In this document: positions 1-4,432 of the stretch, one piece after another
Position numbering within the stretch: position 1 is the first letter of the stretch
Layout: the number at the start of each line of letters is the position of its first letter
From: Granulicella sp.
GTDB lineage: Bacteria > Acidobacteriota > Terriglobia > Terriglobales > Acidobacteriaceae
Assembly (NCBI GenBank): GCA_027339965.1
Contig: DAHWNL010000063.1
Span: 1-28,795 of the forward strand
Reading direction: 5' to 3'
DNA length: 28,795 nucleotides
Notes under the pieces: generated by a model
Seen by the model: the letters and a program-made list of their open reading frames with translations, nothing else
The model's database searches: none
What the model was told of the DNA's origin: nothing
Position numbers and translations under genes: made by a program

Positions 1-851
1 GAGATATCACACCCAGGGGTCGCTGGAGGTGATCTCCCAGATGCTGGATGTTTACGAGGACACCGGCAACCTCGCCTTTGCGAAGAGTTCGATCGTCCCG
101 TTGGCCGACGCGGTCGTCACCTACTACGACCAGCATTGGCCTCGCGGAGCAGACGGCAAGATTCGGATGTCTCCTGCGGCTGCTGGCTTTACCCCCGTCC
201 GTTTCGACATGGCAGCAAAGGATGTTGTGGAACAGGACTCTGCGAGAGCTGCCAGCGCTTCCGATGGGAAGGACTGGGGCGAACGGCAAGACGTCGCCAA
301 ATGGAGTGGGCGGCCCCAACGGCAGGCCAATTCTGCTACCCGCACAGGAGTAGGGAGCGACGAGGAACATGGAAAACCCGGAGCTGTACGTAACCTTCCC
401 TTACCCCCTCTATGGGGTTGGAAAGCCGGGGCTGAAGTTGGCGTGCCATACCTTTCTTGCGCGGCGATTTCCGCAGGACACCTGCTGGGGGCAGGACGGA
501 ACCGAGGCTGCGGCGCTCGGCCTGACAGAGGTCGCCCAGCGTGCAGTTGTGGATGAATTCACCAACTATGGCGACGAACGATTCCAGTGGTTCTGGAGGG
601 CGAGTCATGACTGGATTCCAGATCTGGACAATGGTGGTTCCGGGATGATGACGCTCGAAGAGATGCTGCTGCAAACGGACGGTCGAAGACTTATCCTGCT
701 ACCCGCATGGCCGAGAGACTGGTCAGCGGAGTTCAAGCTGCATGCACCCTTCGAAACGACTTTGGAGGGCCAGGTAAGACAAGGAAAGCTGGTGCGGCTG
801 GTCGTGACGCCGCCGAGCCGGGCGAGGGACATCATCGTCGCCAACCCTTAG
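1..851 (+). pseudogene. Disrupted C-terminal part of a DUF5703 / GH95-like glycosidase-family gene (5' part outside window)
   Basis: Frame 2 reads RYHTQGSLEVISQMLDVYEDTG...YYDQHWPRGADGKIRMSP. Protein-like sequence then continues in frame 3 (LRLLALPP...ILLPAQE), hits an in-frame TAG at 351-353, and continues in the same frame as GATRNMENPELYVTFPY...DWIPDLDNGGSGMMTLEEMLLQ...LLPAWPRDWSAEFKLHAP. ENPELY and LLPAWP..W...FKLHAP are motifs I recognise from DUF5703/GH95-like C-termini. Confidence 0.75.
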
Positions 852-948
852 GTTGACCAACTATAGCCCCGGAGCGCGACGCCGTGAACCCGGAGCGCGT
901 CTCCCGATGCCCCAGTTGAACCTGACCAACCGGGACGCTCCCGGATGC

Positions 949-1770
949 TCACACCCGCAGCTCCCGCTTGGCGGTCTCCGCGACCCGGCCCAGGTCGGCC
1001 ACGGTGAGCACGCGGATCTCCTCCTGTTCCATCGCCCGGATGCCGAATCCATACTGCTCCTGATCGGCCACCGAGGCGATCCGCTCCACGATCGCAGTCA
1101 GTTCCAACTCCAGTCCCTCGGCGCGCTGGACGCCGCTGCGCAGCGCCTCGGCCGAGTAGGCAAAGCCTTTGGCCCCTTCGACGTCGCTCTCCAGGGAGAC
1201 GGCGTGGAACATGCGCACCTTGCCGTTGCGGTAGCCGCAGTCGATCTTCAACGGATCGCCCGGCTGGGTGTAGGTGGCGGCGGCAATCTTCTTGCGCATC
1301 AGCCGCCAGACCCCGGCGGCCTCAAAGGCATCTCGCATGGAGGAGACGATGGCCTGGCGGCCGGACGCTCTACGGCGCCCCGCCGGGGCCTTCAAGGGCT
1401 CGACATACATTCGCAGCAGTTGCTCCATCTCAGCCGGCAGGCTTTCGGCCAGGGTGCCGCGCATCTCGGTGAGCTGCACGCTGTTGGAGAGCGAGTCCTC
1501 CAGCGTCTCCAGCACTGGCCTGGCGTTCACCCGCAGCTCAACGCCCGCCTGCAGCCGCTGGGCAATCTCCGCCTCCAGCGCCTCCAGCAACTCCACGTCG
1601 GCATCCGGATCCAAGCAGCGCACGCGGCTCCAGTCGCGCGTGAAGCGGACGGTCGCGGTCTCATCCCGCCCAGCCTCGCGCAGCACCACGCCGATATTGG
1701 CGAACTCCCCCTTGACCACATCCGGCACATACCGGATCAGGGAAAACTCGCACTGTAGCCGCTCCTGCAC
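949..1770 (-). CDS. DUF3037 domain-containing protein (long form with C-terminal extension)
   Basis: N-terminus has the DUF3037 signature F.LIRYVPD.VKGEF.NIGVVL, with NSVQL further on. Start placed at GTG 1770, 5 nt after GGAGG; the ORF track starts at 1782. Lies directly downstream of a HipA-like kinase. Confidence 0.85.
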   Translation of the reverse strand: MQERLQCEFSLIRYVPDVVKGEFANIGVVLREAGRDETATVRFTRDWSRVRCLDPDADVELLEALEAEIAQRLQAGVELRVNARPVLETLEDSLSNSVQLTEMRGTLAESLPAEMEQLLRMYVEPLKAPAGRRRASGRQAIVSSMRDAFEAAGVWRLMRKKIAAATYTQPGDPLKIDCGYRNGKVRMFHAVSLESDVEGAKGFAYSAEALRSGVQRAEGLELELTAIVERIASVADQEQYGFGIRAMEQEEIRVLTVADLGRVAETAKRELRV

Positions 1771-1829
1771 TGGAACCTCCACCTCAATTTACCCTTAACC
1801 TCCGCATCCCCCTCCAGATTTCTCCGGGA

Positions 1830-2696
1830 TCACATGAGATATCCCGGGGCGTTCTGGGGCGCTGCGGATCCCCCCGGCACGGGCTGGCTTGCGACCAGTC
1901 CCCAAAGCGGAAACGGCTGCCGATCCGAATGGTGAAACTGTCCGATCAGGTCTCTGACCCTTTGCCGGCGCTGCAACAGGGTCTCCATGAGGCGTTCGAT
2001 GGTCAGCGGATCGCCGCCGTACCACTCGGGAGGAACCTCCTCGGCCACCTTCCAGAGTTGCTCCGGCGAGAACTGCTCGACGCGGCTGAGCCAGGGTTCA
2101 AAACTATCCCAGCCGCGAATCTTGGCATACACCTGGTTGCGCGCAAAGACTCCGCGCAGCGGCGCATCCGGAAACGTCCACTCCCCGGCGTTGAAGCAGT
2201 AGCCCTGGTCGATGAATGTGGCCCGATACTTGTGCTCCCGGGGGCGACGTTCAAAGACCGCCTGCCGCCCATTGCAGTTTCCGGTCCACTTGTCCACCAC
2301 CAGCATGCCGGCGAACTCCGCCAGATTGCGCACCTCCTCCAACTGTTGCTCGGGGAGGTAATCCACGACCTGTCCCGGCATCAGTCCGCCGACAAACCGG
2401 CTGCCGAACTGCAATCCGCTGGCGCAGCGCTGGCGCACTCCACGGCCCATCTCCATGACCATTCCCGGACTATTGTCGACCAGCCACTGGCTGACCTCCA
2501 CCACATCGCTCTTGGGCACGGTGAGTCCCACCGCTTCCGCGATCCGGGTTCCGATCAACTCATTGGCCAGCACGCGCAGGTGTTGAGGGTTATTCTTGAA
2601 CTTTACCACCCACAGGTTGCCATCCGCACCCAGCATGAGCTGGCTCTGCGCCCCGCCGCGCATCCGCCGGATTGTCTGAACTGCCGTAACCGCCAA
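1830..2696 (-). CDS. HipA-like kinase (HipA_2 type); catalytic Asp apparently Asn
   Basis: Gly-rich loop RRMRGGAQSQ, VVKF lysine, LANELIG..IA..VGL.VP helix, D.W..N.x.R loop (DKWTGNCNGRQ) and metal-binding FIDQG. TTG start 6 nt after AAAGGA. Confidence 0.85.
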   Translation of the reverse strand: MAVTAVQTIRRMRGGAQSQLMLGADGNLWVVKFKNNPQHLRVLANELIGTRIAEAVGLTVPKSDVVEVSQWLVDNSPGMVMEMGRGVRQRCASGLQFGSRFVGGLMPGQVVDYLPEQQLEEVRNLAEFAGMLVVDKWTGNCNGRQAVFERRPREHKYRATFIDQGYCFNAGEWTFPDAPLRGVFARNQVYAKIRGWDSFEPWLSRVEQFSPEQLWKVAEEVPPEWYGGDPLTIERLMETLLQRRQRVRDLIGQFHHSDRQPFPLWGLVASQPVPGGSAAPQNAPGYLM

Positions 2697-2945
2697 TGCA
2701 AATCCTTTCGGCCCGCGTACTCCCGGGCCTCGACTTCTGGCCGCGATCTGCCGGCGAGGGTGATGGAACCACCCGCCGAAGGCTCAGGCCAAGCCCATGC
2801 TTGCGAACGGCAAGCCGGCGCGCCAGGTCCGTGCCGATGCTTTGTCTTGAAGCGACTCCCTGAAACGGGACTCCTTCATGGTAGCTGTTTGCTGATCTGT
2901 GCCGAAGTCAAGCGCCCCCCCCCGGGCGAGGCCCGGTCCGTGCCA

Positions 2946-2975
2946 TTGCAGCCGACTCAGCCGAACCGCTACCAT
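2946..2975 (+). promoter_or_regulatory. Putative sigma70-type promoter for the small ORF / oxidoreductase
   Basis: TTGCAG-N18-TACCAT in the divergent intergenic region. Confidence 0.35.
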
Positions 2976-3110
2976 CAGCTTGAGGACATGGCTTCTCGCG
3001 GCGTAGCCCAGAGACGGCTGCTGCGCAGAAGGCAGCCGCCGTTTCCAGCTCTTGCAGAGAGCCTGCGAAGGCCGCTGGGGTGTTCTCGCAACCTGTTTGG
3101 AAAGGCTTCT

Positions 3111-3359
3111 ATGGACTCCAGCACTAACAGCTCCGCCGCTCGCCGCTCGGAAGATATCGCACTTGATCTGCTCAAGGTCCTTGCTCCCTTCGCTCACCTG
3201 AGCAACAAGACCGGCTCTGGAACCGGCTTTGGCCTTCCCTTGGCACCCCGGTCGGAGGAGCAGATCGACCAGCTCTTCGAGCTTTATACGCGCTGCCGGG
3301 TGGCCGTAGAGGCTCCACTGCCCTCCCACGCGAAGCCCGGCGCGGCGACACAGAAGTAA
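3111..3359 (+). CDS. Small hypothetical protein (82 aa)
   Basis: 3' end of the 1929..3359 ORF: MDSSTNSSAARRSEDIALDLLKVLA...QIDQLFELYTRCRVAVE. It has amphipathic helices, GGAAAGG upstream, and a stop 2 nt before the next ATG. An alternative in-frame ATG at 2988 follows GAGGA. The RR.EDIALDLLK pattern resembles an acidobacterial hypothetical family (recollection). Confidence 0.7.
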   Translation: MDSSTNSSAARRSEDIALDLLKVLAPFAHLSNKTGSGTGFGLPLAPRSEEQIDQLFELYTRCRVAVEAPLPSHAKPGAATQK

Positions 3360-3361
3360 CC

Positions 3362-4432
3362 ATGCCGCCCGTTCCCGTTGTTGTGGTGGGCGCCGGCGCC
3401 TTTGGCCGCAATCATCTGCGGGTTTATCGCCAGTTGCAGGAGGCCCACCCGGAGCTGGTTCAGCTTAGCGCCTTGGTGGAGCCGGAGGCTGTGCGGCGGC
3501 AGGAGGCTGCCTCCAGCTACAACATCCCGGGCTATGCGTCAGTCGCAGAGCTTCTCGCGGCGACACTGCCGCTGCGGGCCGCCTCCATCTGCGCTCCCAC
3601 GCTGCATCACGCCGCGCTGGCGGAAGAGCTTCTGCGAGCCGGCCTGGACGTTCTGATTGAGAAGCCATTCGCCGCCAGCCTGGACGAGGCGGATCGTGTC
3701 CTGGAGCTGGCACAGACGCTGGGCCGCACGGTGGCCGTGGGTCATCTGGAACGATTCAATCCGGCCGTTGCGGCTACCATCGCCGCGCTCCACCAGCCCA
3801 TGTTCTTCGAGGCGCACCGCCTCAGCATCTTCACGCCGCGGTCCCTGGATGTGGATGTGGTGCTCGATCTGATGATTCACGATCTGGACGTCGTCCTCAG
3901 CCTGGCCGGTTCGCCGGTCCGCGAGGTCCGCGCCGTGGGCCTGCCCGTGCTGTCGTCGCGGACGGACATTGCCAATGTTCGGGTCGAGTTCGAATCCGGC
4001 TGCGTGGCCAACTTCACCGCCAGCCGGGTCTCCACCGAACAGGTCCGGAAGCTGCGCCTCTTCCAGCCGGGCGAGTACCTGTCTCTAGACTTCGCCCGCC
4101 AGGAGCTGCTCCGGATCAGCGTGGACCGGGAGGCCGTGGCTGCGATGTTGGCTGCCGGCCTGTCCCCGGGAACGCCAGCCAAGGCTCCGCTTTCCGCCGC
4201 TCGCCCGCCGGCGGAAGGGCCGGCGCAGCACCCCACGGCGGGGCTGACGCTCACCCGCTCCCAGGTTCCCAAGGGCGAGCCGCTGTTGCTGGAGCTGGAA
4301 GACTTCCTGCGTGCGGTTGTGACAGGAGGCCGGCCGCGAGTCGCGGCCGAAGCCGGTCGTGAAGCGCTGGCGCTGGCGTTGCGGATCAACGATCAGATTG
4401 CCAGCCACGCGCAGCGCGCCGGCCTGCTGTAG
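3362..4432 (+). CDS. Gfo/Idh/MocA family NAD-dependent oxidoreductase (GnnA-like)
   Basis: Rossmann VVVGAGAFG, IEKP, VGHLERFNPA, DVVLDLMIHDLD, ANFTASRVS. Confidence 0.9.
   Translation: MPPVPVVVVGAGAFGRNHLRVYRQLQEAHPELVQLSALVEPEAVRRQEAASSYNIPGYASVAELLAATLPLRAASICAPTLHHAALAEELLRAGLDVLIEKPFAASLDEADRVLELAQTLGRTVAVGHLERFNPAVAATIAALHQPMFFEAHRLSIFTPRSLDVDVVLDLMIHDLDVVLSLAGSPVREVRAVGLPVLSSRTDIANVRVEFESGCVANFTASRVSTEQVRKLRLFQPGEYLSLDFARQELLRISVDREAVAAMLAAGLSPGTPAKAPLSAARPPAEGPAQHPTAGLTLTRSQVPKGEPLLLELEDFLRAVVTGGRPRVAAEAGREALALALRINDQIASHAQRAGLL

Follow-up and report, generated by a model that had tools for sequence, protein, structure and literature searches.

A HipA_2/DUF3037 gene pair of Granulicella that looks like the surviving piece of a phage-like cluster

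Introduction

Gene pairs that encode a HipA_2 kinase and a DUF3037 protein are known as kinase-based anti-phage toxin-antitoxin systems from two reports, both of which we draw on in excerpt (PMC12548924 and PMC13092281). In the Retron-Sda1 operon, deletion of the HipA kinase gene abolished defence and deletion of the DUF3037 gene was toxic, and the pair adjacent to the retron is described as a standalone defence in which the kinase is the toxin and the DUF3037 protein its neutraliser (excerpts of PMC12548924). DS-6, one of the defence systems identified in E. coli prophages and since renamed HipAD, has its kinase gene first: DS-6A is a HipA_2 protein of 249 aa, and its partner DS-6B (275 aa) carries DUF3037 at residues 7-125 and a weak DUF1829 at 163-260 with an HHpred probability of 0.78. 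A catalytic mutant of the DS-6 kinase, D139A, lost defence in E. coli, and AlphaFold3 gave DS-6A and DS-6B together an ipTM of 0.76-0.79 (excerpts of PMC13092281).

The locus described here lies in a 28,795-nt stretch of DNA from Granulicella sp. (contig DAHWNL010000063.1), referred to below as the window. An earlier note on it had singled out a HipA-like kinase gene followed by a DUF3037 gene and had held that the function of such pairs had not been shown; this statement is outdated, as the pairing is the phage-defence candidate PDC-M66 of PADLOC and E. coli experiments have validated homologous pairs, according to the excerpts above. Judged by its matches to family models, the window pair is a relative of PDC-M66, DS-6 (HipAD) and the Retron-Sda1 pair.

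Results

A kinase gene and a DUF3037 gene form a two-gene module

Two co-oriented genes 59 nt apart had been read from the letters of the window, and two minus-strand ORFs bear this reading out. The features of the module and its surroundings are as follows.

2..851, plus strand: GH95-like fragment in two overlapping frames (2-556 and 369-851), outside the module, marking the downstream breakpoint
949..1770, minus strand: gene for a two-domain DUF3037 protein, 273 aa, GTG start at 1770, presumed antitoxin
1771..1829, minus strand: spacer of 59 nt between the kinase and DUF3037 genes, with a GGAGG ribosome-binding site for the DUF3037 gene
1830..2696, minus strand: HipA_2-family Ser/Thr-kinase-like gene, 288 aa, TTG start at 2696, presumed toxin
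2697..3104, no strand: divergent intergenic region, which must hold the promoter of the pair
3105..3359, plus strand: small ORF with relatives present in related loci
3362..4432: GFO/IDH/MocA oxidoreductase gene (mocA)

As an ORF the DUF3037 gene covers 949..1782 (277 aa, GTG at 1782), which leaves a gap of 47 nt to the kinase gene. GTG 1770 is the most likely start, preferred because GGAGG stands 5 nt upstream of it, and the resulting 273-aa form has exactly the sequence of database protein P0001. The kinase start at TTG 2696 and the AAGGA upstream of it are conserved in the window and in three related loci (L001, L003 and L009); an alternative start at ATG 2663 gives a protein of 277 aa, and the database entry P0121, of 100% identity, begins 11 residues later.

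Profile searches returned the two families that the earlier note had named for these genes, with the kinase matching Pfam HipA_2 (3.5e-9, above the cut-off, over residues 8-106 only) and its partner matching Pfam DUF3037 (1.5e-25, full model 1-118, residues 13-127 of the 277-aa form). The kinase reached 22.4 bits against Pfam HipA_C, under the cut-off of 30.5. DUF1829, which the same note had brought up, is absent from the C-terminal half of the DUF3037 protein in Pfam even at E<=10. In a PADLOC scan that took in, among the window proteins, the two of the pair, the kinase matched PDC-M66A (6.8e-10, residues 3-247) and the DUF3037 protein PDC-M66B (5.6e-15, reaching residue 221), with no other model matched and with modest scores of 36.6 and 53.6 bits. 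Among PHROG families, both of them of unknown function, the kinase falls in phrog_3162 (3.6e-12) and its partner in phrog_5137 (1.1e-13). An NCBIfam search gave no match for either protein, and sequence searches of the PDB gave chance-level matches only.

The AF2 model of the kinase (pLDDT 80.6) matches PI4KII-alpha, HipA, Fam20 and CtkA, with 47 matches at E<=1e-3; the HipA structures include those from S. oneidensis (4pu4, 6.3e-6) and E. coli (3dnv, 3tpb). Residues G14, G15, K32, D135, K136, N140, D163, Q164 and G165 are invariant in 54 kinase sequences, and by this alignment the catalytic loop and motifs are intact. The model of the DUF3037 protein (pLDDT 92.1) is laid out as an N-terminal DUF3037 domain (about 1-123), a flexible linker (124-136) and a C-terminal domain (137-273), the last with pLDDT mostly >90 and with secondary-structure elements that we read in the order alpha-beta-beta-beta-alpha-beta. 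Foldseek searches of the PDB with this protein gave weak matches only, the best at E 4.4e-3 and mostly to nuclease folds, and in the model the C-terminal domain bears a weak resemblance to restriction-endonuclease PD-(D/E)xK folds. Against BFVD the protein had two full-length viral matches (3.6e-11 and 4.8e-10), and a search of the ESM Atlas with the C-terminal domain gave no usable match.

The module stands among housekeeping genes

The divergent intergenic region proposed in the earlier note is present at 2697-3104, beyond which the plus-strand ORF 3105-3359 begins. It contains a 12-nt inverted repeat (2878-2889 / 2964-2975), and a promoter scan of the region returned no sigma-70-like site. 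A minus-strand ORF upstream of the kinase gene (2784-3329, 181 aa) had tblastn matches and was dropped as an antisense shadow because the gene caller, which requires high G+C at the third codon position, skipped it in the window and picked the conserved plus-strand ORF in the related loci.

On the other side, the convergent pseudogene of the earlier note survives in part. There are overlapping plus-strand frames, and the frame 369..851 is glycoside hydrolase family 95-like (ESM Atlas score 0.96, 28 of 30 matches), while neither it nor the frame 2..556 has a Pfam match; a frameshifted GH95 fragment is plausible from the sequence, but the frameshift could instead be a sequencing error.

A Pfam scan of 25 other window ORFs found 0 HTH domains, in agreement with the claim that no HipB or HTH gene lies near the pair. 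The idea of a defence island fared differently: the neighbours in the window are housekeeping genes (MltG, RuvX, GreA, ThiC, MetK, MurJ, a tRNA synthetase and others), with no defence genes among those scanned. An Rfam scan of positions 1-4000 and a tRNA scan returned nothing, and thus there is neither a retron ncRNA nor a tRNA attachment site.

Comparison with described kinase pairs

Like DS-6/HipAD, the window module consists of two same-strand genes with the kinase gene first, a short HipA_2 kinase (249 aa in DS-6A, 288 aa here) and a partner, about 275 aa long, that begins with DUF3037 and continues into a further domain, which may correspond to that of DS-6B; it has no HipB. The DS-6A loop around the mutated Asp139, FDKWILNADR, also resembles by eye the invariant VDKWTGNCNGR of the window kinase, the two sharing DKW..N. 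The two differ in that their sequences are very diverged, the link between them being shared PADLOC models, at modest scores, and shared Pfam models. Furthermore, there is a 4-nt overlap between the DS-6 genes, DS-6B has its weak DUF1829 and the system is prophage-borne in E. coli (excerpts of PMC13092281), whereas here the genes are separated by 59 nt, Pfam finds no DUF1829 and the pair is vertically inherited and family-wide, as described below.

The likeness to the pair adjacent to Retron-Sda1 lies in the exclusive matches of the window proteins to PDC-M66A and PDC-M66B. It is tempered by E-values (1e-10 and 1e-15) that are not strong and by the absence of a retron reverse transcriptase or ncRNA here, the Rfam scan of 1-4000 being empty.

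In hipBA operons the antitoxin gene is upstream of the toxin gene, and the targets of HipA and HipT are aminoacyl-tRNA synthetases. With HipBA and HipBST the window pair shares a HipA-type kinase fold and, presumably and by analogy, the principle of a toxin kinase that is checked by a protein partner. It differs from HipBA in lacking both the HipB HTH antitoxin and the HipA N-terminal domain (Pfam), in having the presumed antitoxin gene downstream of the kinase gene, and in the fold of the partner, which is unrelated by sequence.

The pair is near-universal and constrained in Acidobacteriaceae

The recurring neighbourhood of HipA-like kinases and DUF3037 that the earlier note had named is seen here in the same order across the family: of 80 related loci from Acidobacteriaceae, 79 have the kinase gene immediately upstream of the DUF3037 gene on the same strand, a count taken over close relatives only (57-96% identity) and without bearing on gene context in other phyla. 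The exception, L073, has just 85 nt of sequence upstream of the DUF3037 gene. The pair is a tightly linked, near-obligate unit, more so than chance would give. Measured in 78 loci and in the window, 79 sources in all, the distance between the two genes is mostly 0-170 nt; in two loci a PhyH dioxygenase gene is inserted between them. The kinase match contains an in-frame stop in 2 of the 79 sources (L004 and L029). We count both the insertions and the stops against the reading preferred in the Discussion.

In a one-genome-per-species collection, 582 of 599 candidate stretches encode a relative, making the pair near-universal in the sampled Acidobacteriaceae. Its own tree follows the genus names given in the record titles, and by this measure it is inherited vertically within the sampled family. 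Purifying selection on both genes is strong, with dN/dS of 0.04-0.18 for the kinase and 0.05-0.15 for the DUF3037 gene; these ranges include comparisons inside the clade that has lost the phage-like cluster described below. The dS of the pair is about that of the flanking host gene mocA, and the pair is more constrained than this neighbour. The PADLOC models carry over to the relatives, with PDC-M66A matching 54 of 54 related kinases and PDC-M66B 69 of 78 diverse DUF3037 proteins. By tblastn, the DUF3037 protein had no relatives among sequenced plasmids and phages, and among phages neither the distant family member P0352 nor the kinase, which was searched against phages only, had any.

In most relatives the pair occupies a fixed slot in a phage-like cluster

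In most of the related loci, the pair is embedded in a conserved phage-like cluster of co-oriented genes, with the large terminase (TerL) gene on one side and the portal gene on the other. Of the testable loci, 66 of 70 have the portal gene directly downstream of the pair and 62 of 68 have TerL directly upstream of it; two loci, L017 and L019, lack TerL and retain the pair. The cluster comprises TerL, portal, a head-tail adaptor and 8 further conserved families, for which Pfam, PHROG and PDB searches gave no assignment, and its structural genes have dN/dS of 0.03-0.29. It comes in two arrangements that differ in gene order, and its chromosomal contexts number at least three; the pair holds its slot in both arrangements. 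Host genes flank the cluster on both sides, the host neighbours being metabolic, and a scan of flank gene families out to 10 kb turned up no integrase. Cluster-bearing strains include Terriglobus roseus DSM 18391 (L046), where the cluster lies within NC_018014.1 at about 150.8-171.6 kb, and Tunturiibacter empetritectus M8UP27 (L048). We did not find a description of the cluster or of this context of the pair in the literature searched; the neighbourhood files of PMC12548924 might show phage contexts of DUF3037 homologues.

The cluster may be a domesticated, GTA-like element. As in GTAs such as RcGTA, it is made of head-packaging genes with host genes to either side and no integrase seen, the tree of the pair tracks host genera, and selection is purifying. 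It is unlike GTAs in that most of its genes have no recognisable family and in its varied gene orders and chromosomal contexts. To our knowledge, no known GTA cluster contains a kinase/DUF3037 pair.

The pair has outlived the cluster at least twice

The window and four of the loci (L001, L003, L009 and L018) are without every phage gene and have kept the pair; L018, from Granulicella mallensis X5P3, is thus an orphan pair too. On the tree of the pair this orphan state amounts to two changes, one for the clade of the window, L001, L003 and L009, which has an SH-aLRT of 100 and is nested among cluster-bearing loci, and one for L018, and on this phylogeny loss of the cluster happened at least twice. 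Junction mapping by blastn places the deletion edges in the window within about 10 nt of the start and stop codons of the pair. On the upstream side, about 230 nt (2714-2945) are absent from cluster-bearing relatives by the same mapping and by alignment of the orphan loci, and on the downstream side homology to the closest relative, L001, ends at the DUF3037 stop codon at 949. From these junctions the window pair looks like the only surviving piece of the phage-like cluster. That both genes came through at least two separate losses fits a self-sufficient toxin-antitoxin unit, either selected or addictive.

Discussion

With moderate confidence, we favor the reading that the pair is a diverged, phage-derived member of the HipA_2/DUF3037 toxin-antitoxin family, serving abortive infection or addiction and kept after the element around it decayed. 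The earlier note had made the DUF3037 protein the partner of the kinase in an anti-phage or toxin-antitoxin module, leaving its role as antitoxin, substrate or effector; experiments on homologues back an antitoxin-like role, which would extend to the window protein by analogy (excerpts of PMC12548924 and PMC13092281). On the same analogy, the short HipA-like kinase would be a growth-arresting toxin that is bound and silenced by the two-domain DUF3037 protein, and the latter may in addition contact DNA through its endonuclease-fold C-terminal domain. Some trigger, for example phage infection, would release the kinase, and the released kinase would phosphorylate an essential host or phage target, such that the infection is aborted.

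Defence systems are usually patchy and fast-evolving, and the near-universality of the pair, its genus-tracking tree and its strong constraint count against the defence part of this reading. Also against the preferred reading are the modest PADLOC scores, the short reach of the HipA_2 match, the missing DUF1829, the housekeeping surroundings in the window and the empty tblastn searches of plasmids and phages. One alternative is that the pair is no defence system at all and is a working part of a phage-like, possibly GTA-like, element, the window copy being a relic that persists for a secondary reason. In such an element it might time particle production, shut down the producer cell or phosphorylate packaging or host proteins. 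The place of the pair argues for this, being the same slot between TerL and portal in nearly all testable loci and in both arrangements of the cluster, as do a rate and constraint like those of the structural genes and the membership of both proteins in PHROG families. We nevertheless consider it improbable, given that the genes are intact and under purifying selection where all structural genes are gone, at least twice over, that L017 and L019 keep the pair without TerL, and that homologues act in E. coli as two-gene defence without phage structural genes, according to the excerpts cited above.

The toxin-antitoxin reading could also be stripped of any benefit to the host. In a purely selfish addiction module of a toxin kinase and a labile antitoxin, cells that lose the module die and the host gains no defence, which is consistent with deletions that ran up to the start and stop codons of the pair and never removed the pair itself, and with the toxicity of deleting the DUF3037 gene in a homologue (excerpts of PMC12548924). 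Family-wide vertical inheritance and a toxin dN/dS near 0.1 are not easily explained in this way, since prior inactivation of the toxin would be neutral, and homologues do protect against phage in the excerpts; we regard pure addiction as distinctly unlikely. Very unlikely, finally, is a non-toxic, domesticated signalling pair, in which the kinase would have a housekeeping substrate and the DUF3037 protein would be its regulator or that substrate: the pair is near-universal, vertical, more conserved than mocA and set in a housekeeping neighbourhood in the window, but it is usually housed in a phage structural cluster and not in a metabolic operon, and the sole experimental data on the family, those of the excerpts cited above, are of toxicity and defence.

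The preferred toxin-antitoxin reading can be joined to a wider and more tentative proposal, namely that the genomes of Acidobacteriaceae contain a GTA-like phage head cluster, ancient, domesticated and passed on vertically, of which the pair is a fixed internal component between terminase and portal, possibly a kill switch or guardian, that outlives the element as a selected two-gene orphan, as in the window. In that role the pair could halt the growth of a cell that is infected or is producing particles, or it could ensure that the element is never lost. We hold this proposal to be possible, if doubtful.

As a type of module the pair is ordinary, because HipA_2/DUF3037 pairs have already been demonstrated as anti-phage toxin-antitoxin systems. 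The interest lies in the history of the clade, in which a defence or addiction module behaves like a core gene, and in the conserved phage-like cluster that has been brought to light in a major, poorly studied soil family. The questions raised here are directly testable, as culturable strains of both the cluster-bearing and the orphan state exist. If the GTA-like reading is true, the cluster would represent a class of domesticated phage element not reported before, from a phylum that is dominant in soil, and the pair would show a HipA-family toxin-antitoxin system in a place and role that are likewise unreported.

Gene organization and family of the pair

The earlier note had singled out a HipA-like kinase gene and a DUF3037 gene as a two-gene unit, and the ORF calls agree: both genes lie on the minus strand, separated by 59 nt when the DUF3037 gene is started at GTG 1770. 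This start is the most likely one because a GGAGG lies just upstream, and the 273-aa product that it yields matches database protein P0001 exactly. For the kinase, the TTG 2696 start and the AAGGA ribosome-binding site before it are conserved in the window and in three related loci (L001, L003 and L009); a database protein with 100% identity to the kinase (P0121, 277 aa) starts 11 residues later. No shift in G+C content marks the pair.

Features of the pair and its flanks
2..556 and 369..851, plus strand: overlapping frames of a GH95-like glycoside hydrolase fragment that looks frameshifted
949..1782, minus strand: DUF3037 gene (longest ORF), co-oriented with the kinase gene
1830..2696, minus strand: kinase gene, 288 aa, TTG start
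2697..3104: divergent intergenic region, 408 nt
2784..3329, minus strand: 181-aa ORF upstream of the kinase gene
2878..2889 and 2964..2975: 12-nt inverted repeat upstream of the kinase gene, 11/12 complementary, arms 74 nt apart
3105..3359, plus strand: conserved small ORF, just upstream of a MocA-type oxidoreductase gene (mocA)

The boundaries of the unit largely hold. The divergent region is present on the right, and the two overlapping GH95-like frames on the left (2–851) would fit the convergent pseudogene that had been described there, with an assembly frameshift as the alternative; this fragment adjoins the pair in none of the 80 related loci. As previously noted, no HipB or HTH gene was found in Pfam scans of the pair and 25 other window ORFs, and scans around the pair found no tRNA or Rfam match. 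A promoter scan of 2697–3104 found no sigma-70-like site. The ORF at 2784–3329 has tblastn matches in relatives and overlaps the small plus-strand ORF; since the gene caller, which demands high third-codon-position G+C, chooses the plus-strand ORF in the loci, it is probably an antisense shadow rather than a gene. Outside the pair, the window holds housekeeping genes (MltG, RuvX, GreA, asparaginase, ThiC, MetK, MurJ, an old-yellow-enzyme-type oxidoreductase, an M50 peptidase, an AIR-synthase-related protein, an aminotransferase, an M3 peptidase, a class II tRNA synthetase and a PLP enzyme).

Family membership is shown at the HMM level. Of the families that the earlier note had named, Pfam HipA_2 matched the kinase (3.5e-9, residues 8–106 only) and DUF3037 matched the second protein (1.5e-25), with DUF1829 undetected in the latter; HipA_C fell below cut-off on the kinase, and NCBIfam gave no match for either protein. 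The only PADLOC-DB matches of the two proteins were to the candidate system PDC-M66 (PDC-M66A, 6.8e-10, residues 3–247; PDC-M66B, 5.6e-15), which was also the sole PADLOC system matched by related kinases (PDC-M66A, 54/54) and by diverse DUF3037 proteins (PDC-M66B, 69/78).

PMC12548924 describes a strong association of DUF3037 with HipA-like kinases, the pairing that PADLOC names PDC-M66, and reports that in the Retron-Sda1 operon defence against phage Bas51 was lost when the HipA kinase was deleted, deletion of the DUF3037 gene was toxic, and the retron parts were dispensable. A second pair, the E. coli anti-phage system DS-6, is described in PMC13092281, whose authors suggest as a hypothesis that it is a toxin-antitoxin system akin to HipAB, and state that it was renamed HipAD in Brenes & Laub 2025. 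DS-6A is a 249-aa HipA_2 kinase (Table S8) and DS-6B a 275-aa protein with DUF3037 at 7–125 and DUF1829 at 163–260 (HHpred probability 0.78); a D139A mutant lost defence, and AlphaFold3 ipTM was 0.76–0.79 for DS-6A with DS-6B and 0.67 with DNA. By eye, the DS-6A loop that carries the mutated D139 (FDKWILNADR) resembles the D135 loop of the window kinase (VDKWTGNCNGR). The earlier note's observation is confirmed and its interpretation partly supported: these homologue experiments support, for the family, the proposal that the DUF3037 protein is the cognate partner or antitoxin, and the statement that function had never been shown is out of date, as the Retron-Sda1 pair and DS-6 have been tested. 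The module adds a new, diverged member to a kind of system that is already known and was validated recently.

Predicted structures

The AF2 model of the kinase (pLDDT 80.6, pTM 0.81, tail 271–288 disordered) gave 47 structural matches at E<=1e-3, including PI4KII-alpha (1.3e-6), Shewanella HipA (6.3e-6), Golgi casein kinase/Fam20, H. pylori CtkA and E. coli HipA. Invariant in 54 kinase sequences are the glycine-rich loop R13-G14-G15-A16-Q17-S18, K32, the catalytic loop D135-K136..N140, and D163-Q164-G165; judged by sequence, the catalytic motifs are intact.

The DUF3037 protein model (pLDDT 92.1) comprises two domains, 1–123 and 137–273, joined by a floppy linker. Secondary-structure elements of the second domain follow the alpha-beta-beta-beta-alpha-beta order of PD-(D/E)xK nucleases, D172 and D177 each show at least 90% conservation over 78 diverse members, and no canonical ExK motif was seen in this domain. 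Foldseek against the PDB gave no match at E<=1e-3, and the best of the weak matches were mostly nuclease folds (BstEII, Can2, SfsA, Cdn1, XPF, XisH). Among viral models there were two full-length matches (3.6e-11 and 4.8e-10), followed by endonuclease-like and DUF1828 proteins. An exhaustive search returned 1090 DUF3037-protein clusters (50% identity) at E<=1e-3, many of them full-length two-domain proteins of 260–300 aa.

The pair occupies a terminase-portal slot in relatives

A one-genome-per-species scan gave at least 599 candidate stretches, at least 582 of which encode a relative; we analysed the best 80 loci (57–96% identity, almost all Acidobacteriaceae), a sample that, because the query alignment was narrowed, speaks for close relatives and not for other phyla. 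The linkage raised in the earlier note is near-obligate here: the kinase gene lies directly upstream of the DUF3037 gene on the same strand in 79/80 loci, the exception being cut by a contig end. In L010 (8997–9992) and the matching place in L026, a co-oriented PhyH-family dioxygenase gene (Pfam 3.5e-12) lies between the two genes, which are 1031 nt apart.

In most loci the pair is embedded in a co-oriented gene string. Crude gene calling followed by clustering into families identified the large terminase (TerL, c3; phrog_2, 3.9e-22), the portal (c2; Phage_portal, 4.7e-48) and a head-tail adaptor (c6; 1.9e-18), and eight further conserved families (c10, c11, c12, c5, c7, c4, c9, c8) received no assignment from Pfam, PHROGs or PDB searches. 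By tblastn, the terminase is directly upstream of the kinase gene in 62/68 testable loci, and the portal immediately follows the DUF3037 gene in 66/70. Two gene orders share the TerL-kinase-DUF3037-portal core:

Order 1: c10-TerL-kinase-DUF3037-portal-c11-c12-c5-adaptor-c7-c4-c9-c8
Order 2: adaptor-c7-c4-c9-c10-TerL-kinase-DUF3037-portal-c8

Order 2 has either a transposed block or a circularly permuted cluster, and is found in loci of Edaphobacter/Tunturiibacter type (L035, L036, L040, L045, L047-L050, L054, L061, L065-L067, L074, L076, L079, L080).

The cluster spans ~15–17 kb in most sampled Acidobacteriaceae (L002-L080; examples are L014:4235-19400, L050, and L046 from Terriglobus roseus DSM 18391, NC_018014.1 150760-171584). 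It is flanked by host genes (mocA/lolA/mltG, catalase/ADH, E2/LipB/E3 genes, purE/purK), no integrase was seen among flank families scanned within 10 kb, its genes show dN/dS of 0.03–0.29, and its portal is only ~25% identical to any deposited phage. Table 1 of a 2018 survey (PMC5900883) lists strain KBS 146 with no prophage detected and one portal gene counted; L067, which derives from KBS 146, has the cluster. For these reasons the cluster, known here from its genes, may be a phage-derived, possibly GTA-like, domesticated element. Its genes seem to be lost bit by bit around the pair, since L017, L019 and L042 retain pair and portal with two small genes in place of terminase and c10: c14, which has a weak, sub-threshold sigma-70 region 4 match, and c19. 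One in-frame stop in each kinase match of L004 and L029 reflects either occasional toxin inactivation or MAG sequence errors.

Probable persistence of the pair after loss of the cluster

Terminase, portal and other cluster genes are absent from the 28.8-kb window and from L001, L003, L009 and L018, which we call orphans. In blastn junction mapping of the window against cluster-bearing L002, L004 and L006-L008, homology ends in the host flank at ~3088–2946, resumes 0–9 nt before the kinase start codon and stops 4–12 nt before the DUF3037 gene end; L001, the closest relative, diverges from the window exactly at the DUF3037 stop codon. The inverted repeat, both arms of which are conserved in L001, L003 and L009, straddles the point (~2946) at which host-flank homology to the cluster-bearing relatives ends; it might serve as an operator or RNA element, or be a scar of the deletion.

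A concatenated-pair tree (73 rows; IQ-TREE quick search, LG+G4, unrooted) was built without L004 and L029 and without five further loci in which the kinase match was missing or the kinase or DUF3037 match short. It tracks the genus names in titles (Terriglobus, Edaphobacter/Tunturiibacter, Granulicella) and places the orphan state as two changes: the window clade (SH-aLRT support 100), nested within cluster-bearing rows, and L018, Granulicella mallensis X5P3. We read these as losses on this unrooted tree because 68 rows bear the cluster against 5 orphans (four loci and the window). A few rows bear other phylum names in their record titles and are probably mis-binned MAG contigs. Ten contigs (L005, L013, L017, L023, L029, L032, L034, L053, L065, L072) come from bins named outside the family (Bradyrhizobium, Aquilonibacter, Acetobacteraceae, Verrucomicrobia, Janthinobacterium, Rhodanobacteraceae); pair sequences of the 7/10 placed on the tree group within Acidobacteriaceae clades, pointing to mis-binning of MAG contigs rather than gene transfer.

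Pairwise Nei-Gojobori dN/dS is 0.04–0.18 for the kinase and 0.05–0.15 for DUF3037, pairs within the orphan clade included, and 0.11–0.44 for the flanking mocA. The dS values of the pair match those of mocA (kinase, DUF3037 and mocA: 0.23, 0.28 and 0.29 against L001; 0.81, 0.75 and 0.92 against L003), which, with the low dN/dS, indicates that the pair has been passed on along with the chromosome and has stayed functional since the element was lost from this locus. Comparative sequence analysis shows an origin in the phage-like cluster, near-obligate linkage, purifying selection and, more than once, the keeping of both genes as a unit.

Proposed role

By analogy with the characterised homologues, the kinase would be a toxin that the DUF3037 protein binds and neutralises, and phage infection would release the kinase and arrest the cell; DNA binding by the endonuclease-fold domain of the DUF3037 protein may serve autoregulation or sensing. 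The family-wide, core-like distribution of the pair is unusual for a defence system and keeps three less likely alternatives alive: that the pair serves the phage-like element's own biology, that it is a pure addiction module, or that it has taken on a domesticated signalling role.

We found no literature report of a conserved phage-like cluster in Acidobacteriaceae with the pair between terminase and portal, or of the pair surviving as an orphan, and both appear unreported; the neighbourhood files that supplement PMC12548924, and Brenes & Laub, could bear on this point. The kind of module is already known, and what appears new here is the context of the pair: its slot in the cluster and its survival as an orphan.
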